Source: an uncultured virus (IMG/VR IMGVR_UViG_3300020049_015491) (Duplodnaviria > Heunggongvirae > Uroviricota > Caudoviricetes). Taken from it: a stretch of DNA of 64,000 bases. This document shows, piece after piece, positions 6,254 through 41,541 of this stretch. Position 1 is the stretch's first letter. Every line of letters starts with the position of its first letter. The stretch lies in the IMG/VR virus record IMGVR_UViG_3300020049_015491; one strand, given 5' to 3'. Below the pieces are notes generated by a model that saw only the letters and a list, made by a program, of their open reading frames with translations, was not told the origin of the DNA and searched no databases. A program made the translations under genes and the position numbers.

Positions 6254-7669
6254 CTAAGAAGTTGGCTGAGATTCTGTCAGCCACTTCTTTATCCTAACTC
6301 CGGCATCGGGGGTTAGAGTGAGGTAGGGCTCATCAGCGAATACCCGAGTTCTATCCTTGGTAACTTGAGCCGCGTGACTGGACTGGTCTACTTCCATCGC
6401 TATTGATACCTCATATTCCAGCCCGTCTCTGAAGACGATACCCATGCCGACCTTTTTCGGGGTCATGCCCTTATCAGTTTGGTTGAGCACATACTCCGTC
6501 TTCGACCTGGCCGTGAGGATTACGTGCATGTCGCAAGTCATGATACGCTCAATGAGTTTCGCATGCAGCGGAGTCACATCCTTCCAGGCGGTATAGGAGT
6601 TGCCTGTTCTGCTGGCAGCCGTTATCTTAGTGTGCAAGTCCAACAGGCCGCCTTCCGCCGTCCAGGCATGGGACAGGGAGTCAATAATCAGGCATTCGAT
6701 TCCAGCTTTCTCAGCCATCTCAATGGCCTTGGTGTACCTGGCCACGGTGTACGGGGCGCTCAGGACGATGGTCTGATATTGACCAATCTTCACGCCATCG
6801 ACATCGGTCCCGACATACAGAGATCCGGACCTGTTTTCAGTGTCAATGATCAGAATCTTTGACCAATCTCCGGTTAAACCGAATGCGGTTAACAGAGCAC
6901 CCAACGTTTTACCGCCACCAGATGGTGAGCTGATCAGCATCTTGATGAAAGCCATCTCTCTTCTGGCTGGCACGATGGCCAGCTCTCCGTCATCTGGCAC
7001 AGGTGTCGGGGCGGGCCGAGAGGGCGGGGCGGCCTTGGCCGGCGCGGCGGTGGGCCTGGCTGGAGCAACCACTGGGGGTTTAGCTGGGGCAATTTGGGCG
7101 GCTTTGGCCTTCTCCTGATTTATGAATGCCTGGGTCCCAGGCACGGCCAATGGGGGCTTAGCTGGGGCAGTCTCAGTTATGACCTCTTTCTTGGCGGGCT
7201 TCTCTGGCTTAGTGAAGTGCTTAGGTGGAGCATTGGAAGGCTTGGGGCATACCCTGCCCATATCATCGACTTCCTCCTCCTCAACTGGCACCGGATCAGG
7301 CTCAACGGGGGCATCCGGGGGAGCTGCTTCCACCGTCTTCTTTGCCACCGGGGGCTTGGCCGGGGCAGCAGCCTTGGCAGGCCTGGCTGGCGGAGCTTCA
7401 GGTTCGTCAGGCTCTTCCTTATAAGCCTCCAGGGCCTTTTTCAACGCAGCGCTGAAGTGCTTCTTGATCTTGATCAGCGCAGTTATCTGGTCATCATTGT
7501 CATCATCCAATGGCTCAACCTTCCTCAATGTAAGCTGTCCATCGCCCACGATATTGAATCCGATCTGGCCATACTGGGTTACGATAAGTCCTATCTCATC
7601 CTCAATCTGTGCTTCGTAGCTGAATTTTTCAGCGTACTCTTTCAGAAATTCCTCTAAAAATGGTTGCAT
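6254..7669 (-). CDS. AAA_24/Sak4-like P-loop ATPase with long Pro/Ala-rich N-terminal region
   Basis: Walker A SPSGGGKT, IDTENRS, Walker B IIDSLSHAW, C-terminal KDRT. Confidence 0.8.
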   Translation of the reverse strand: MQPFLEEFLKEYAEKFSYEAQIEDEIGLIVTQYGQIGFNIVGDGQLTLRKVEPLDDDNDDQITALIKIKKHFSAALKKALEAYKEEPDEPEAPPARPAKAAAPAKPPVAKKTVEAAPPDAPVEPDPVPVEEEEVDDMGRVCPKPSNAPPKHFTKPEKPAKKEVITETAPAKPPLAVPGTQAFINQEKAKAAQIAPAKPPVVAPARPTAAPAKAAPPSRPAPTPVPDDGELAIVPARREMAFIKMLISSPSGGGKTLGALLTAFGLTGDWSKILIIDTENRSGSLYVGTDVDGVKIGQYQTIVLSAPYTVARYTKAIEMAEKAGIECLIIDSLSHAWTAEGGLLDLHTKITAASRTGNSYTAWKDVTPLHAKLIERIMTCDMHVILTARSKTEYVLNQTDKGMTPKKVGMGIVFRDGLEYEVSIAMEVDQSSHAAQVTKDRTRVFADEPYLTLTPDAGVRIKKWLTESQPTS

Positions 7670-9885: not shown

Positions 9886-10170
9886 TTATTGGTCTTTCAA
9901 CATTTCAAGCACATGGTTGAGATCCCGGAGGAACATTTTCCCGGAATCAGTGATTAGATATCGGTCTCGGAGATCCCCCATTATGATTCCTTCTGAACGG
10001 GCGATTTCTCTCGTTCGAGTGAGAACGATAAATTTCCGCTCCATCAGGATGCTGAGAATCTTTTTGGCACTGACTGAGTTTATTCGGACTCGATCTACAA
10101 TATCTGTGAGTACCCTGCTATCGCAAGCATCCAGTACCTCCTTTGTGAGTTCTATTTTATCTCTTACCAT
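9886..10170 (-). CDS. Winged-helix transcriptional regulator
   Basis: LTDIVDRVRINSVSAKKILSILMERKFI...YLITDSG pattern typical of archaeal wHTH proteins. Confidence 0.7.
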   Translation of the reverse strand: MVRDKIELTKEVLDACDSRVLTDIVDRVRINSVSAKKILSILMERKFIVLTRTREIARSEGIIMGDLRDRYLITDSGKMFLRDLNHVLEMLKDQ

Positions 10171-11540: not shown

Positions 11541-11851
11541 TATACCTCCATATTATGCCTTTTCAGCATAGCCTGCAATTCTGCCTCCAGTGTTCGAACT
11601 TTGGTTTCAAGCTGTTCAATCTGGCCATTGAAATTTATGCCATATTCTTTTTGAATTTCTCTTCGGGTTCTTTCTGAATCTTCTCGAACGGCTGCAAACC
11701 AAGCGGCCTCATCAACTATAAGAAATTGAAGAACTGGATGAGAAAGATCCTTAATCGCATCATTCAGCCGTGATTTCGCTTCTCCAATGTTAAGATTATC
11801 CAGAGCTTCCTGGGCTTTTACCAAAGCCTGTATGGTTTCGATTATTCTCAT
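11540..11851 (-). CDS. Hypothetical coiled-coil protein
   Basis: Coupled to neighbouring genes by overlaps. Confidence 0.6.
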   Translation of the reverse strand: MRIIETIQALVKAQEALDNLNIGEAKSRLNDAIKDLSHPVLQFLIVDEAAWFAAVREDSERTRREIQKEYGINFNGQIEQLETKVRTLEAELQAMLKRHNMEV

Positions 11852-12084
11852 TTGATCCCCACCGTTGTGCAATGGTTATTGAAAAACCGTCTCCTCCTAA
11901 TGCTTCCCATGTTTTTCCAGACCACGGCAGCAAATTTTTCTTTCAGCATCCATCGTAGCTCTACTCCATCCCAGGCCTCTGGGACTTTTCCGGCATCTAT
12001 CTCGGCGTAAATTTCATCCCGAATAGCAGATACCAGGCTGTTGACCAATTCTTTCTGAACATCGGGTTTCATCCAATCCCTCAT
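11848..12084 (-). CDS. Hypothetical phage-type protein
   Basis: ATGA coupling; GKVPEAWDGVELR. Confidence 0.65.
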   Translation of the reverse strand: MRDWMKPDVQKELVNSLVSAIRDEIYAEIDAGKVPEAWDGVELRWMLKEKFAAVVWKNMGSIRRRRFFNNHCTTVGIK

Positions 12085-12248
12085 TCAAATCCATAGGTGC
12101 CGACCGTATTTCCATTAATGTCTCTCAAGGTGCCTGTCCAATGGCCAGTATCCATCAAACGGGCGCACTCCCGGATAATCCGAGTCAGCTCACCAGGATT
12201 ATCCTTGAAAGCGGCATTGCCGCCAACTATTCTTATGACGAAATTCAT
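12081..12248 (-). CDS. Small hypothetical protein (55 aa, not in track)
   Basis: MNFVIRIVGGNAAF...LRDINGNTVG; ATGA overlaps at both ends. Confidence 0.6.
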   Translation of the reverse strand: MNFVIRIVGGNAAFKDNPGELTRIIRECARLMDTGHWTGTLRDINGNTVGTYGFE

Positions 12249-12412
12249 TGTCCCACCTGATTTACCAGGTATATTTCAACAGTCGGAACCAAGAACCTCA
12301 TTCCGTTATCAGCCAGGATGATGGCTGCCTTCCCGGTGAACGATTCCAGGACGCCATACTGCCATTCATCGAATAACCGGAAATATACTGAATCACCCAA
12401 TTGTAGAACCAT
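12245..12412 (-). CDS. Small hypothetical protein (55 aa, not in track)
   Basis: MVLQLGDSVYF...; ATGA overlap with the next gene. Confidence 0.55.
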   Translation of the reverse strand: MVLQLGDSVYFRLFDEWQYGVLESFTGKAAIILADNGMRFLVPTVEIYLVNQVGQ

Positions 12413-12413
12413 C

Positions 12414-12647
12414 TCAATCATCTTTCCTTAAATTTCCCAGGTCTCGGAGACCATAATTCGTCTCGGCGGTTCCAGCCATCTTCATGGCCCGCTTGGCACC
12501 AACATGGAGCGAACTGAGGGCATCTTCGATGGTCAAAATACCATTTATCACCTGGCAGATATCATCCGTTTCCAGGCCATTATCAAGCATTCTGACGGCT
12601 CTTTTTACCATTTCGGTTTTTTCAGATATATACTCTGCATTATACAC
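12414..12647 (-). CDS. Hypothetical protein
   Basis: Tightly packed operon. Confidence 0.55.
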   Translation of the reverse strand: MYNAEYISEKTEMVKRAVRMLDNGLETDDICQVINGILTIEDALSSLHVGAKRAMKMAGTAETNYGLRDLGNLRKDD

Positions 12648-12851
12648 TCAAAACCACTCTCCAATTTCGTATATTCTCTTATCGAGATATGGTACAATAC
12701 CCTCGAACCCGTAGACCTTGCCTTCTACGATGAATAGGCCACCGTAGTCCTCATCACAGCCAAGCTCTTCAAGCATAGGTTTGACAACCTGGGAGTCGGT
12801 GTAAAGCTCGACTCCGGGGATGTCGTTTATGTCACGTACAAAAACGTACAT
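12648..12851 (-). CDS. Hypothetical protein
   Basis: Tightly packed operon. Confidence 0.6.
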   Translation of the reverse strand: MYVFVRDINDIPGVELYTDSQVVKPMLEELGCDEDYGGLFIVEGKVYGFEGIVPYLDKRIYEIGEWF

Positions 12852-13112
12852 TCAGAACACCTGCTGAGAGATTCTAATCATCCTACCGTTGGCAAAGATC
12901 TCCTTTTCGACCCAGATTTGGAGGAGATCGCCTTCGCAATCGTTGGTTTTGATCTGAATGCCCATGATGGCCGGCCAGGCATCACGACTAAGATCATTGT
13001 TGACCTCACTCCACTCTGCTATCCAGGCCACGATAGCCTTTTTGTTTGATAACTTGCGAAGAATATTGGTCACATCGTTGAGATCTTCAAGATCTTTTTC
13101 AATTGGACCCAT
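12852..13112 (-). CDS. Hypothetical protein
   Basis: GAGGTGA SD before ATG 13112 (MGPIEK). Confidence 0.6.
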   Translation of the reverse strand: MGPIEKDLEDLNDVTNILRKLSNKKAIVAWIAEWSEVNNDLSRDAWPAIMGIQIKTNDCEGDLLQIWVEKEIFANGRMIRISQQVF

Positions 13113-13247
13113 TGTCGTCACCTCATCACAGCCTCCCAGGAGAAGTCTCCCATCAACCATGCTGGCTCCGGATCGCCCAGAAACAACCAGGAGGGGAGTA
13201 TTTTCCGGAAGACCCTATAGAATATTCATCAGCTCTTTTATCATCAT
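13113..13247 (-). pseudogene. Small gene with in-frame TAG at 13215-13217
   Basis: MMIKELMNIL*GLPENTPLLV resembles the common phage MTVKELIExLQxLPED N-terminus. Confidence 0.5.
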
Positions 13248-13291
13248 AACGGTTCCTTCGGAGATAATAATTTCCTACAATGCATTGCCAG

Positions 13292-13474
13292 TCCGTTAAA
13301 ACCGTGGACTTCGATCTTTACACGTCTACCGCCCCGCTTCTCATCGATAGTAGTGAGTACCAGGCAAGCGGGTCCAGAAGCTACGCCTGGGTTATCCAGG
13401 GGAAGCTCGCAACCAACGCGGTCCAAGGAGACAAGCCCAACGAGGCGATTGTCTGTAGGTACGACGAGTTCTGA
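13292..13474 (+). pseudogene. 3' fragment of a gene at the left edge of the insertion
   Basis: ...VIQGKLATNAVQGDKPNEAIVCRYDEF* has no own SD or start inside the block. Confidence 0.5.
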
Positions 13475-13580
13475 AAACAGTTAAATAGTAGTAAGTAGTT
13501 GTGGTGGATGATGTCACTTGTCCGACTCTCCGTACTCACCGGGCATGTGACATCCCCTAATCATTTTTGGTGGTGTGAAC

Positions 13581-14417
13581 ATGGACGATATTAAAAGGTG
13601 GTTTTATCATAAGGACCCTACGAAACCATATAGCACAAGCGTGTGGTGTGGCGTAGAGGCTACCGGTGTAAAGGATTTCGTGGAGGGTGACATGACTGAG
13701 GGCATGTCTGGTAACAGTATGCACGTTACCCATCGCGTGGTTAGACTGGAGGCAAAAAACATCAAGATTTTTGCAAAGTCTTCCACCAACGAGTATGCCC
13801 GCGCCTCCCAAGAAATTGTTATCACAAACGGCATCATCGAGGACATGTACGGAGCGGCATATGTCGGCCCGCACAAGCAGCAAGACGTTCTTGTGGGCGC
13901 ATTCGTGCAACAGACCGTTGGGAGGGCCGAAGGTGAGAGCATCGTTGTAGATGCGGACGGACTGGATTTCACCAGGGCTGCAAACCCAAGGGCCAGGATA
14001 GATACTCGCATAGAGAGAGGCGGGTCACTCGATTTGTACTCTGCCAGGGCACAGACTGTCAGGAAGCCAGGAAACACCAGCGCAGAAGCAATCGTAGAGT
14101 CCATGCGGGCAAATGGACAGATCCGGGAGTTCATTGACGCCAGTTCGAGGGATGGAGACATCTCCTGGTGCGTGCTGAATCTTCTGAGAGGCGAGATCTG
14201 TGAGGAACCGGTGATGGACGACGTTCCTTGCCGGGCATTCGTGGATAATGCCGATTGGAAGAATACCAGTACTACCCTCTCAGCGATCGTGGATTCAAAG
14301 AGCTATGGTGGCGACTACAGAACACATCATAAAATCCCGCACGTCCCACTGAAATCCACGTACAACCAACTGAACCAGGCAGGAAAACAGTCGATTCTTT
14401 TGAGGGCAATAAGTTAA
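13581..14417 (+). CDS. Hypothetical protein
   Basis: ~278-aa ORF with GGTG SD; upstream hairpin GATGTCAC...GTGACATC. Confidence 0.7.
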   Translation: MDDIKRWFYHKDPTKPYSTSVWCGVEATGVKDFVEGDMTEGMSGNSMHVTHRVVRLEAKNIKIFAKSSTNEYARASQEIVITNGIIEDMYGAAYVGPHKQQDVLVGAFVQQTVGRAEGESIVVDADGLDFTRAANPRARIDTRIERGGSLDLYSARAQTVRKPGNTSAEAIVESMRANGQIREFIDASSRDGDISWCVLNLLRGEICEEPVMDDVPCRAFVDNADWKNTSTTLSAIVDSKSYGGDYRTHHKIPHVPLKSTYNQLNQAGKQSILLRAIS

Positions 14418-14451
14418 ACCTCATCTCGACAACATTTTTTTAATAATAGCC

Positions 14452-14973
14452 ATGACGAAATCCTTTGCTGTGATTATGATTATGATGTTGACTTTGCCGG
14501 TCACATCATCGATGGAACACAAATGTGATTTGGTTGGAAACGGGAAACTGGATATGTCATTCGATGGTGGATGGGGGCAAACTTATGTCCGCGGGAGTGG
14601 TGATATCGCGTTGGGGCAAATAGCCAACGCTGACGGGAAGTCATTTTCGGCCCTGACCTTGATTGATTCTGATCTAGGGAGCATTCGGACCAAGACCCCA
14701 GAGTATGATGGAATGTTCGTAGATGTGAAAAATCTCAACGGCTCTATGCAGGTCAGTAGGACGGAAACCATCGAAGAGGAGGCGACAAAACACGGCCTGA
14801 ACGTGTTGTTGAATCTTTCCGGAAATGGGTCAATAGACGAGTCCATGTTCATGAAAGATACCAGATCAAGACCCGCGGTGTCGGTTCTTGAGTTCGCTGG
14901 AGAGTTCAACTACACAAGCATCCTGGACATGACAGAATCGGAGATGTGGACTACCACCAAGAGACTTTTGTGA
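14452..14973 (+). CDS. Secreted hypothetical protein, likely homolog of 40957-41541
   Basis: Signal peptide; GSIRTKTPEY vs GKIRLRTPEY. Confidence 0.65.
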   Translation: MTKSFAVIMIMMLTLPVTSSMEHKCDLVGNGKLDMSFDGGWGQTYVRGSGDIALGQIANADGKSFSALTLIDSDLGSIRTKTPEYDGMFVDVKNLNGSMQVSRTETIEEEATKHGLNVLLNLSGNGSIDESMFMKDTRSRPAVSVLEFAGEFNYTSILDMTESEMWTTTKRLL

Positions 14974-14979
14974 GGATCT

Positions 14980-15300
14980 ATGAAAACCAGTTTTAACGTG
15001 ACGAATAAGGCAAACGCTAACGCGACCCCTCCTGGCGAGGAGTGCTCATCGTGTGATGACTGTAAAGATGGAACATCTGATCAAGCGTGTGGGTGCATCC
15101 CACAGGACCTGGAGCATCGCGTGATGCCAACCGGGTCGTTCAAGCCTGTGGGCCAGGAACGGCGTTACATCACAACCACTGGAAAACGACTCACTAGGAA
15201 GGATTTCATGGAATGGTCTAGAAAAGAGGGCGCACAGGTGGACCCCATAGTATGGTTCACCGAGATGGGGCATGGTCCGGTCCCTGACGATGTTACATGA
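14980..15300 (+). CDS. Cys-containing hypothetical protein, likely homolog of 40619-40960
   Basis: CxxC, GCIP, PTG...RYITTTG...TRKDF...VDP. Confidence 0.65.
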   Translation: MKTSFNVTNKANANATPPGEECSSCDDCKDGTSDQACGCIPQDLEHRVMPTGSFKPVGQERRYITTTGKRLTRKDFMEWSRKEGAQVDPIVWFTEMGHGPVPDDVT

Positions 15301-15337
15301 ATTACCTTTAAATACTTTTTTCAACAATTAATCGCGC

Positions 15338-15787
15338 ATGGCACACGACGAATTAAAGCAGGGAAAGGGAAGACGCGGCGCGCCTCTCCCGGACGAGAAA
15401 GAGTATGCGGAGATGTACAATGACATCAAAAAGAACTCGCATAGCGACAACTCCCTGAGCCTCCAGGATATAGTTGAAAATTCCGCCGTGGTAAATGCAC
15501 TTGCAGATATTCTCATTATAGATGGCGTAATAAAAGAAAAGGATGGCATCGATCCCATAAACAGGATAGACAAAAGTGCCGATTTGTATGGTGGGGTCCT
15601 AGCTGGATTGATAATGATCTTAAAAGAAGATGGGATAATACCAGACCTGGAATCCAAGTTGAACGATGGCATAATAGCCGCGCACCGGACCATGATGCAC
15701 TTCGGGTCGCGGGTGGTGAACTTGGATATCATAGTCAATTATAGGCAGGAATTTTACAAAGCCATTCGAGCTTCCAGACGGAAGTGA
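15338..15787 (+). CDS. Hypothetical protein
   Basis: TTTAAATA box at ~15307 upstream. Confidence 0.65.
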   Translation: MAHDELKQGKGRRGAPLPDEKEYAEMYNDIKKNSHSDNSLSLQDIVENSAVVNALADILIIDGVIKEKDGIDPINRIDKSADLYGGVLAGLIMILKEDGIIPDLESKLNDGIIAAHRTMMHFGSRVVNLDIIVNYRQEFYKAIRASRRK

Positions 15788-15791
15788 TAAC

Positions 15792-16319
15792 ATGTCCATT
15801 CCCGAAAGGAAATACTACTGGATGGGCTATACATCATTGGGTAGAATTGTGCCGCAATTCACGCGAGATGGGACTGAACAACTATGGACTGATGTCCTTT
15901 ATAATTACGAAATCACTCGGATTTATTGGATGCCATTTGACCTGGACTCCGCAGCATGTGCAAGGCTGTCCCCGTCGCTAACGTTTTGGCCTCTGGTATC
16001 AAATTCCCCTGCTATGTGGCTTGACATCCCAAAGAACTCCATCGGGGTCCCTATCTGCACTGAGGACATAGAGCAATATGATTATTGGCACTGCGAGATA
16101 TGTCACGGTGATATGTTTTGGCATGGCGACGATACTCCCCTGGTGTGCCCAGCATGTGGTAGCAAAAACGAATGGGTTTGCCAGGAGCGTTTCAACCAGG
16201 TCCATGAGAGAAACGTCCCAGGTAGATTTATTGACGGTGATTCTGGTCTCTTCAAGCTTCTGAATGAGGCGTTCACCCAGATGGATGGGCTTGCAATAGT
16301 TGTCGTCCTTGCGGTATGA
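15792..16319 (+). CDS. Zn-ribbon protein, truncated at 16184 and running into antisense sequence
   Basis: CEIC...CPAC; downstream of TTGCCAG the frame is the reverse of the split minus-strand gene. Confidence 0.55.
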   Translation: MSIPERKYYWMGYTSLGRIVPQFTRDGTEQLWTDVLYNYEITRIYWMPFDLDSAACARLSPSLTFWPLVSNSPAMWLDIPKNSIGVPICTEDIEQYDYWHCEICHGDMFWHGDDTPLVCPACGSKNEWVCQERFNQVHERNVPGRFIDGDSGLFKLLNEAFTQMDGLAIVVVLAV

Positions 16320-16437
16320 CCACACGTACCAGACTGCGGCACGTTCGATCTTATGTTCGCTCATCGCGAGACAGAATGAGTCTGGGAGGGCAGAATCACA
16401 GCCCCCATTCAGGCCCGTCAGTTCCATTAATCGTCCT

Positions 16438-16686
16438 TTACTGACCATGTTTATCACTCCTCAAAAGATCACCCAGGGTGGTTGCTTTCCATTCTGGAGG
16501 AACTTCCCATCCTTCAGGAAGAGGTTCGAGACATTTCCAGGTTCGGAAAGGCTGCTGGGGAGTTTTCCAGCTACAAGATCGGCATCGGGTGTTGTAGATG
16601 GAGCCGTAATGGTTGGTCGTAAATACCTCCACGGCTCCACAATTTGGGCATTCGTAGCGTTTTGGGGTGGCTTTTCCGGTTATCAT
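16438..16686 (-). CDS. Small Zn-finger protein
   Basis: CPNC...CRSC. Confidence 0.65.
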   Translation of the reverse strand: MITGKATPKRYECPNCGAVEVFTTNHYGSIYNTRCRSCSWKTPQQPFRTWKCLEPLPEGWEVPPEWKATTLGDLLRSDKHGQ

Positions 16687-16816
16687 TCTTCATCCTCCTC
16701 AGTCTCTCCGTGATAGTCACCAGATGTGTAGCCTTCACTTATAAGGCGTGCAATATGCTCCAAATCAGAATCAGATGGGATACCATCTCCAAAATCTATG
16801 TTCCACCAGGGCATAA

Positions 16817-17065
16817 TTACCTCGGAATATGAGTGTACGCTTCTGCAGTTATGGGTGAGTCCTCATCAGTCCAGCCACGACCACAATGGCCGCATTGCCA
16901 TTCAAAGCAGGATGAAGCGCCTATGCGGGCTATTTTCTGAAGTGGTCGAACGTACATCCAGGCATAAGCGGATATGCCGCCGCAGCCGGGACAGTACTCC
17001 AAGTCTCCGGAAGCAAGCAGTTTGGAGACTGGCAATGGCCATAAGGCCCGGAGATAGATGCTCAT
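16817..17065 (-). CDS. Small Zn-finger protein
   Basis: CPGC...CGHC. Confidence 0.6.
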   Translation of the reverse strand: MSIYLRALWPLPVSKLLASGDLEYCPGCGGISAYAWMYVRPLQKIARIGASSCFEWQCGHCGRGWTDEDSPITAEAYTHIPR

Positions 17066-17195
17066 TTTATCAGATCTGGTCGATAGATTTCTTTACGAGT
17101 GGTTGCATTCAGTTGTCGTTCTATCCAGGATGAAACAAAGTGGTGCTGGCGGTTCTGGGTGTTTGGATTTTTGCCCTTTGAACCTCTCTTTTTGC

Positions 17196-17729
17196 TCATA
17201 GTTTCACCACTGAGAAGTTCAATTCCTCATCAGTGAAACCGATTTTGCGAAGGCTTGCTTTCAGTTCGATGAGGATAGCAGCGTCAGGGGTGTCCAGATC
17301 AGGGTCATCAGATTCTAAACCCCATAAGGACTCATATTCGTGGGCAATGAAGGTTTTGCCGTTGATCTCGATTGCGAGGGTGGCATCGTAGACGATGCCT
17401 ATAAACTCCCAAGTACCCTTGTACCATGCTATTGCCCGTTTGAGGTCTTGCTGGGCATAGTGGAATACGGCTTTTTTAAGGCTACCGTATTCGGCTATGA
17501 CCTTAGCTTTTTCCTCATCAGTTATACGTTCCCAACCATCAAGTTTAACCCAGTCACTGGTGCTGGATTTGAAGTATGGGGCGACGGGAAGGTTCGTGCG
17601 AAGAACACCGCTTTCCCAATGGTTAGTGAACTTGCCATAATCTGATTCAAGCATGCCTTGATTATCCAAATCAGGCTCAACCTTCCGGGTTACGCTGGTT
17701 ATCTTGATTCTTGCGTCTACCATTTTCAT
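17196..17729 (-). CDS. Hypothetical phage-type protein
   Basis: WEFIGI...ESLWGLESD motif; ATGA coupling. Confidence 0.7.
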   Translation of the reverse strand: MKMVDARIKITSVTRKVEPDLDNQGMLESDYGKFTNHWESGVLRTNLPVAPYFKSSTSDWVKLDGWERITDEEKAKVIAEYGSLKKAVFHYAQQDLKRAIAWYKGTWEFIGIVYDATLAIEINGKTFIAHEYESLWGLESDDPDLDTPDAAILIELKASLRKIGFTDEELNFSVVKL

Positions 17730-18280
17730 CCCTCGATATTGCTCAATTTACCGTAAATTTGGCCCAGGTCTTCTACGGCTTTGGTCACTTCCAGATCAGT
17801 TGCTTTGTGATCAGGATTGCTCTTCGGACGAAGAAGGTCGATGAGATCACGGATACGGTATTTGAGGATATCGACCTCATCACGCCGAAGGTATTTCTTG
17901 ACTCCCATGCCCCAGGTGAAATCGATGAGAGCGTAAGCGATGGTATCACCCAGATATTCTCGGAGCATATGCTTCCTGGCGAGGTATTGGCTGCCGTGGA
18001 AATGGATCGTTATATCCAGTTCCTTATATATGGTGCCGTTCTGGAAATATCGGCCATTTTTGATTATGACCGAGAAATCCTGCCAGCCTTCGTACATGCC
18101 ACAGTCATTCATGCAGTGGAAGCTGTTTCGACAGGTGATATGATGGGCGTGACCTTCAATCACCCAATCTGCATCGATGCCACTGCCGTGAGGTAATAAG
18201 TCAGGCAGCTCTTCAGCCCAAGCGGGCAGGTTTACTGAAATGGTTTCACGTACTCCGAACATAAAATCATCCTTGTTCAA
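17726..18280 (-). CDS. Hypothetical phage-type protein
   Basis: LPHGSGID...FHCMNDCGMYEGW. Confidence 0.7.
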   Translation of the reverse strand: MNKDDFMFGVRETISVNLPAWAEELPDLLPHGSGIDADWVIEGHAHHITCRNSFHCMNDCGMYEGWQDFSVIIKNGRYFQNGTIYKELDITIHFHGSQYLARKHMLREYLGDTIAYALIDFTWGMGVKKYLRRDEVDILKYRIRDLIDLLRPKSNPDHKATDLEVTKAVEDLGQIYGKLSNIEG

Positions 18281-18494
18281 CTATTTGGCCGGTGCGAACG
18301 GCCATTATCAAATATTCACCATTGCTGTCAACGGTTGTTGCTTTTTGAGCATGGAAAAGTTTAACGTCATCAGTACTGTTCAAGTAGCGCCAGGTTTCGC
18401 TGCCCTTTTTCCGAAAGTAAAAATCATAGGTTAGACGGGCTTTTGGCTCTATGGTTTTTCGTGGGGTGTCGGCATAGTGATCAACAAATTTCAT
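18267..18494 (-). CDS. Hypothetical protein
   Basis: GAGGTGA SD. Confidence 0.6.
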   Translation of the reverse strand: MKFVDHYADTPRKTIEPKARLTYDFYFRKKGSETWRYLNSTDDVKLFHAQKATTVDSNGEYLIMAVRTGQIVEQG

Positions 18495-40618: not shown

Positions 40619-40960
40619 CTAGCAAGTTTTCTGAATTTTAGCTCTCATCTTGGTGTAAGCCACTTCTGGGTCTATGTTATACTTTGCGCGATATTCTTTT
40701 TTAGTATATTGATTTCCCAGAGAATCTACATATCGTGCTTCGCCCACTACCGGAATTATTTTGCCGGAGGGCAGCGCCCATTCAAATCCGGTTGGTGCCA
40801 TGCACCCCAGCCAGTTCTCGTCTACGGGGTCCTCGTCAAGATTTACATCAGCACAGGTTCCGCACTGGGGACAGCATACTTTAGCCATTCCTAAATCATG
40901 TGGCTGAGAACCTGTTCTTATTTTCTGCAGCCTTCTTTTCAAATCATCCAGATAGCTCAT
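40619..40960 (-). CDS. Cys-containing hypothetical protein
   Basis: CPQC; similar to 14980-15300. Confidence 0.65.
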   Translation of the reverse strand: MSYLDDLKRRLQKIRTGSQPHDLGMAKVCCPQCGTCADVNLDEDPVDENWLGCMAPTGFEWALPSGKIIPVVGEARYVDSLGNQYTKKEYRAKYNIDPEVAYTKMRAKIQKTC

Positions 40961-41541
40961 AACTTTTCACCTTCCCAGATATCCTTTCCACTGAGTTCAA
41001 GCGTCCTATTAAACAGTAGCGCTCCACCCATTTGATCTACTTCCGCAATGGTCAGTGGTCGTCCTTTGTATGGCACGTTAATTCTCTCAGTTACTATAGC
41101 ATTTCGCAATGCTGAAACATCAAATACTATTGCAGAGTTTGCCATCATGGTTGTAGTAGTGAGTATGGTAGTGCTGTTATCTTGCGTATCTGTGACTTCA
41201 ACTTCGACAGGCTTTATTGCAAATCCGTAGATCACGCTTGCATTGATATATTCACCTGATACCAAATTAACATATTCGGGAGTTCTTAACCTGATTTTTC
41301 CAGCATCTGCATCTAATTGGGCTATTCCTTCGGTACTGTCTTTGGATATCATTTTGGTTCCGGAGTATGCCATTGCGCCAATGGTAGATACATCTATCGA
41401 ACCACGTTGACTATTTTCTATTATGCGAGTTTGCCCGCTGTCATCGCAAACAGCATCGAGGCTGGTCGTAATCGTTGCTTGTGCAGGAGCAGGAAAGAAC
41501 ATCAGCCCCAGCATAATCAGAAGCGCATAAGCAATTGACAT
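40957..41541 (-). CDS. Secreted hypothetical protein
   Basis: Signal peptide; similar to 14452-14973. Confidence 0.65.
   Translation of the reverse strand: MSIAYALLIMLGLMFFPAPAQATITTSLDAVCDDSGQTRIIENSQRGSIDVSTIGAMAYSGTKMISKDSTEGIAQLDADAGKIRLRTPEYVNLVSGEYINASVIYGFAIKPVEVEVTDTQDNSTTILTTTTMMANSAIVFDVSALRNAIVTERINVPYKGRPLTIAEVDQMGGALLFNRTLELSGKDIWEGEKL

Follow-up and report, generated by a model that had tools for sequence, protein, structure and literature searches.

The window, i.e., the whole stretch of DNA that was analysed, covers bases 1–64000 of an 82,690-bp IMG/VR virus record that is classed as linear and 100% complete. No terminal repeat of 20–400 nt was present at the contig ends, and the contig was therefore not called circular; the end sequences do recur elsewhere in the genome. 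Genes identified in the window encode an MC1 chromatin protein, a family B polymerase, a primase/helicase, an AAA_24 ATPase (471 aa, 6254–7669; weakly matching Sak4 in PHROG, E = 4e-5), and TnpA and TnpB of the IS200/IS605 type. Because MC1 signal among 14 control genomes was restricted to Haloferax and Methanosarcina, and because a virus with Methanosarcinales recorded as its host (vir525) carries two of the gene families of the block described below, the host is likely a methane-making archaeon (methanogen). The feature under study lies within an array of small minus-strand early genes, where a 2887-bp block (13287–16173, genes on the plus strand) of foreign DNA from another virus has been swapped in for 277 native bases.

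From left to right, the block holds the rear part of one gene, four intact genes, and the front part of another gene. The rear part (gene A, 13289–13474) comprises the final 61 codons of a virion-module gene that has been cut and would measure about 196–201 aa when whole; its translation (13292–13471) is 78% identical to residues 137–196 of the 196-aa protein P0033, and its profile match spans positions 134–196 only. It is followed by an intact 278-aa orphan (13581–14417), which shares 36–38% identity over the full length with its homologues P0002 and P0003. This orphan was predicted to be all-beta with long strands (pLDDT 75, pTM 0.77), a fold that is possibly undescribed, and a Foldseek search of the model against PDB and BFVD returned no match at E ≤ 0.001. 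The next genes encode an intact protein of 173 aa whose hydrophobic N-terminus is likely a signal peptide (14452–14973; predicted model unusable, pLDDT 32), an intact 106-aa cysteine-containing protein (14980–15300), and an intact 149-aa orphan (15338–15787) without a family in PHROGs, Pfam, PADLOC, or NCBIfam. The front part at the right edge (gene B, 15792–16181) comprises the initial 130 codons of a truncated zinc-ribbon gene, which encodes 201–252 aa when whole, as judged from the alignment of homologues and from a profile match spanning positions 8–137 of 225 only; its frame continues past the break through native antisense DNA to 16319.

The four passengers, i.e., the intact genes, gave no notable family or defence match in PHROG, Pfam, PADLOC, or NCBIfam, and no recombinase or transposase family matched any block protein, in agreement with the original prediction. 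Matches of the passengers to PDB sequences were weak (best E = 0.007), those in the ESM Atlas serve as leads only, and the 278-aa and 106-aa proteins had no match in the phage collection. No Rfam match was obtained, and a promoter and terminator scan with bacterial-type models yielded hits at chance level. Two of the passengers had been related to a gene pair at 40.6–41.5 kb, which was borne out: the 173-aa protein is a distant homologue of the native 194-aa gene product (40957–41541; 28% identity over 98 aa, single-comparison E-value 2e-6), the 106-aa protein is a homologue of the native 113-aa gene product (40619–40960; 27% over 79 aa, single-comparison E-value 6e-9) and of a 93-aa gene product in G002, and the gene order of both pairs is the same. 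A signal-peptide protein paired with a small cysteine-containing protein thus occurs both in the recipient (40619–41541) and in the donor block (14452–15300), and the small cysteine-containing partner in G002 (L005 9980–10261) adjoins a baseplate-like gene. No family or fold was identified for this pair; kinship was likewise not demonstrable between the 173-aa protein and a 242-aa gene product near the G002 homologue, or between the 278-aa and 173-aa families. The two passengers distantly duplicate a pair already present in the virus, and any benefit of this is speculative.

The limits of the block were placed by comparison with sequencing runs. Twenty-four runs were listed, 20 of which contain part of 12000–18000, none of them half of its words; four of the 20 (from four studies) were aligned to the window. 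All four cover the flanks and have zero depth inside the block. Contigs of runs X1, X2, and X6 connect 13286 to 16174 via 277 other letters (shorter sides of 22, 255, and 103 letters, respectively), and run X9 has loose ends at both joints. The true joints are accordingly 13286/13287 and 16173/16174, with 277 native bases gone between them. Since the empty allele carries 277 other bases, the event was a replacement (2887 bp in, 277 bp out) and not an insertion between target duplications. The original prediction had placed an insertion between two copies of TTGCCAG and proposed a search for the empty site; the positions of both copies are correct and a block-free allele does exist (four of four aligned runs), but the copies do not delimit an insertion that duplicated its target, and there is no clean 7-bp empty site. 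Among 55 windows of 2.9 kb, none is more atypical in 4-mer usage than the block; GC3 does not set the block apart from the neighbouring early genes. No second copy of the block was found in the genome. The 277-bp parental allele is still common in other samples, and the exchange is very recent.

Both joints lie within native genes. At the right, a native minus-strand gene (16174–16448) has had its last 8 residues replaced by antisense read-through to 15999, which turns a 100-aa product into one of 149 aa (P0006 compared with P0007–P0009). Besides the 149-aa form of the window, its protein cluster contains three members of 100 aa that come from other sources and share the C-terminus ...LLANPQDVDITIR; the natural form of this gene is 100 aa long with that different end (three of three other cluster members). 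At the left, the minus-strand segment 13244–13286 is an orphan 3′ end: 30 letters of the X9 loose end behind 13286 suggest that these 14 codons would close a different small gene, most of which disappeared along with the 277 bp. In-silico deletion between the two 7-mers does yield the 103-aa frame ending at 13244 that had been taken as a gene restored by excision. This frame is a chance fusion of two different genes, as its 13244–13284 tail stems from a gene other than the one at 16448; whether the latter naturally ends differently had been put forward as a check, and it does. The recombinant appears to survive because little was sacrificed, namely one small gene and the final 8 residues of a second.

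The early region is plastic beyond the block, as evident from a 225-bp indel and other swaps in the aligned runs. At 11576–11587, 1.7 kb from the block, about 225 additional bases flanked by a 12-nt repeat are present in X2 and X6, and loose ends occur in X1. Just downstream in the minus-strand array, the gene at 12852–13247 is 131 aa long in two cluster members and has TAG at codon 11 in the window where these members have Trp, i.e., a nonsense allele or amber read-through; X1 and X2 are identical to the window in this gene letter for letter. At 10027–10028, X1 and X6 have loose ends whose letters resemble an IS200/IS605 end, presumably marking a mobile element that other strains carry and the window lacks. 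Between 18004 and 21159, X2 diverges from the window, and X1, X6, and X9 have a common divergent patch near 18350–18470, pointing to further module swaps.

Genes A and B were traced in other viruses. The 131 codons from 15792 match nine proteins, eight of which (201–252 aa) were aligned, leaving out the 567-aa repeat protein P0027; all eight carry a second CxxC and at least 70 further residues beyond the break. In G001, A and B are whole and adjacent in this order, downstream of capsid-like genes, a setting that we take to be a virion module from gene order. In vir525, the order is A, a TnpB gene, B, and a baseplate gene, with A and B whole, and in G002, A and B are again whole and adjacent in this order, with the homologue of the 106-aa protein located elsewhere. 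An annotated reverse transcriptase gene of vir525 (L003 18310–19329) adjoins a tail protein gene, presumably the arrangement seen in diversity-generating retroelements. A profile search found no gene A or B of the recipient virus's own. Because three tailed viruses carry A and B as complete, separate genes in this order, the donor contribution was presumably a linear piece cut inside a gene at each end; the four passengers were not found between A and B in G001, vir525, and G002, and a donor with additional genes at that place has to be assumed. No donor was found in viral contigs (searched with the block and flank proteins, P0033, and an exact 22-nt pattern), JGI metagenomes, or GTDB genomes, searches from which very near records may have been omitted.

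The absence of the block from all four aligned runs, together with the fact that no run contains half of the 12000–18000 words and that every contig with block genes is of JGI/IMG origin, would also fit an artefact in which two viruses of a single sample were fused during assembly or amplification, and no reads or independent contigs spanning either junction were seen. We consider such a chimera unlikely, as block proteins occur on five JGI/IMG contigs and each junction-spanning protein on three, although these possibly derive from one study. Two contig entries of 23,039 bp, one with a block protein and one with an AAA variant differing from the window in one of 471 residues, probably represent a second assembly and may or may not be one and the same contig. 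A co-assembled donor might also have left an identical full-length gene A or B on a separate contig, and none was present among proteins of 106–2000 aa and 72–230 aa, respectively. Finally, the joints would involve at most 11 shared nucleotides, which is shorter than usual assembly k-mers.

The sequence at the joints bears on how the block arrived. The two copies of TTGCCAG start at 13285 and 16178, 2893 nt apart, and cannot be extended. As placed by the run joints, the left copy (13285–13291, plus strand) consists of two native letters and five coding letters of gene A; gene A of G001 (L002) has the same five letters at the same codons, preceded there by A rather than TT. The right copy (16178–16184, plus strand) is wholly native and lies 4–10 nt inside native DNA. 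If the edges are chosen blindly, nine maximal repeats of at least 7 nt link the two zones concerned, and the 7-mer repeat alone is therefore not strong evidence; only one of the nine passes both frame tests. In about 20,000 draws, a repeat of at least 7 nt lay within 4 nt of two random junctions in 1.6%. The 7-mer at both edges is thus mildly non-random, and chance does not fully explain it. No inverted repeat was found at the block edges among the 25 longest of 88 pairs, and neither joint has an unusual hairpin. Mobilisation by the IS200/IS605 element, for which TnpA and TnpB genes are present, was rejected, there being no end hairpins and no clean target.

The right joint additionally carries letters that were probably shared by both parents. 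The W-x-C codons of gene B (16173–16181) hold C in eight of eight and W in seven of eight homologues, and from 16174 onward the sequence is native, so that native letters (16174–16181, plus strand) complete these codons according to homologues and runs. The chance of such a completion is 1 in 440, and donor and recipient therefore likely shared at least about 8 nt, perhaps 11, in which case the stretch would extend to 16184. From sequence, a microhomology of about 8–11 nt is thus suggested for the right joint, and little or no homology is expected for the left one.

We regard it as the most probable course (probability of roughly 0.7) that a 2887-bp piece of another tailed virus replaced the 277 bp and was captured once via microhomology-guided, non-homologous repair. 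The donor would have been a co-infecting virus or a resident provirus. The first step would have been a break, or the stalling of a fork, among the small genes; the right-hand end may then have annealed to the donor at about 8–11 shared nucleotides inside gene B, whereupon 2.9 kb of the donor would have been copied or joined in reverse orientation. The new end would have been linked back to the left arm in a near-blunt fashion, with hardly any homology involved and with loss of the 277 bp. The 7-mer could be due to chance, or else to a second, short-lived template switch that returned to the recipient at five shared letters before the final join. Candidate agents are the Sak4-like AAA ATPase of the virus and host end-joining. 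Capture from another virus, one of the options in the original prediction, is hereby upheld, and so, probably, is the role it gave to microhomology.

The same joints were considered under two readings that involve a circle. Joining the block's own ends does yield, as had been noted, an in-frame ORF (191 aa), and both joins being in frame on paper would suit a minicircle, or an insertion flanked by 7-bp target duplications and precise enough for its excision to restore a 103-aa gene. We consider this reading highly improbable, given the 277 extra bases in the empty allele and the natural length of 100 aa; moreover, the block contains no replication or integration gene, and the circle frame is chimeric. 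The 191-aa frame consists of the gene B head and the gene A tail, which are whole and separate in three viruses, and circularisation consequently restores no natural frame. P0024, the closest gene B homologue, shows no similarity to the left tail of the block, and the front of P0033 is unrelated to gene B, so a satellite-like minicircle, whose junction frame would unite two unrelated truncated genes without forming a natural gene, was abandoned.

It is doubtful, albeit less so, that a 2893-bp circle formed first, the donor piece looping out at the five to seven letters in common, and that a broken end of this virus copied the circle once and rejoined 283 nt away, or that integration of the circle was succeeded by a deletion. 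Such an intermediate would explain in full why the 7-mer stands at both edges and why the circle join is in frame. It would, however, require the scar to coincide with the priming site, for which we estimate odds of roughly 11 in 2893 without a sequence-specific enzyme; in addition, the fused frame matches no natural protein, and the five left letters are ordinary gene A codons. It seems rather improbable that the edge letters record a virus-to-virus capture route in methanogens, in which a segment, freed from one virus as a small circle or accessed through serial template switches, is copied a single time into a broken second virus by a short-homology enzyme (the Sak4-like ATPase or the primase). 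If such a route were true, it would have delivered four intact genes, including a second secreted-protein/Cys-protein pair that may act on superinfection. The preferred reading of a single microhomology-guided capture of a linear piece is the one compared with known systems below.

Insertion sequences and integrative elements with target-site duplication, as well as phage satellites, are taken here as commonly defined. The block resembles insertion sequences and integrative elements in the short direct repeat near both of its edges. Unlike these elements and satellites, it has no transposase, integrase, or replication gene and no terminal inverted repeats among the pairs listed, its target lost 277 bp instead of being duplicated, and both of its ends cut through genes. 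General searches of the open-licence literature found no description of the locus.

With respect to candidate enzymes, Sak4 anneals complementary 81-mers, with stimulation by the cognate SSB, according to the consulted excerpts of Hutinet et al. 2018 (PMC5928155), which report no activity at 8–11 nt; the AAA_24 ATPase of the window has a weak Sak4-like match, and the presumed shared stretch here is about 8–11 nt. According to the available portion of a 2025 study (PMC12019639), an archaeal primase needs only a few bases for annealing and can continue synthesis over templates that are discontinuous, and such annealing and synthesis could give joints like those of the block. That activity was shown in Saccharolobus and led mostly to 1–2-bp indels, and the portion of PMC12019639 referred to reports no kilobase capture from another virus.

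The closest parallel is provided by phage mosaics without a homology trace. In the sections of De Paepe et al. 2014 (PMC3945230) drawn on here, homology traces are given for about 30% of recent phage mosaics, the origin of the other 70% is left open, and the minimum for Red-beta is stated as 30 bp. The block is like the mosaics without a trace, as described in these sections, in being a recent exchange within one host group with borders inside genes. It differs from the mosaics of that source in the likely archaeal nature of the virus and in the inverted, non-syntenic position of the piece, apparently without long shared flanking homology; in addition, the presumed shared stretch of about 8–11 nt falls below the 30-bp Red-beta minimum. 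As in illegitimate mosaics, the borders ignore gene limits, and two end genes of the donor as well as two genes of the recipient are cut. The example is limited to one event, with the donor not found and the passengers without assigned function; as a non-homologous capture between two different, likely methanogen-infecting viruses, it bears on the origin of mosaics without homology traces, which the cited sections of PMC3945230 leave open. The locus represents ordinary viral mosaicism, resolved to the base, and adds an example to it and not a new system.
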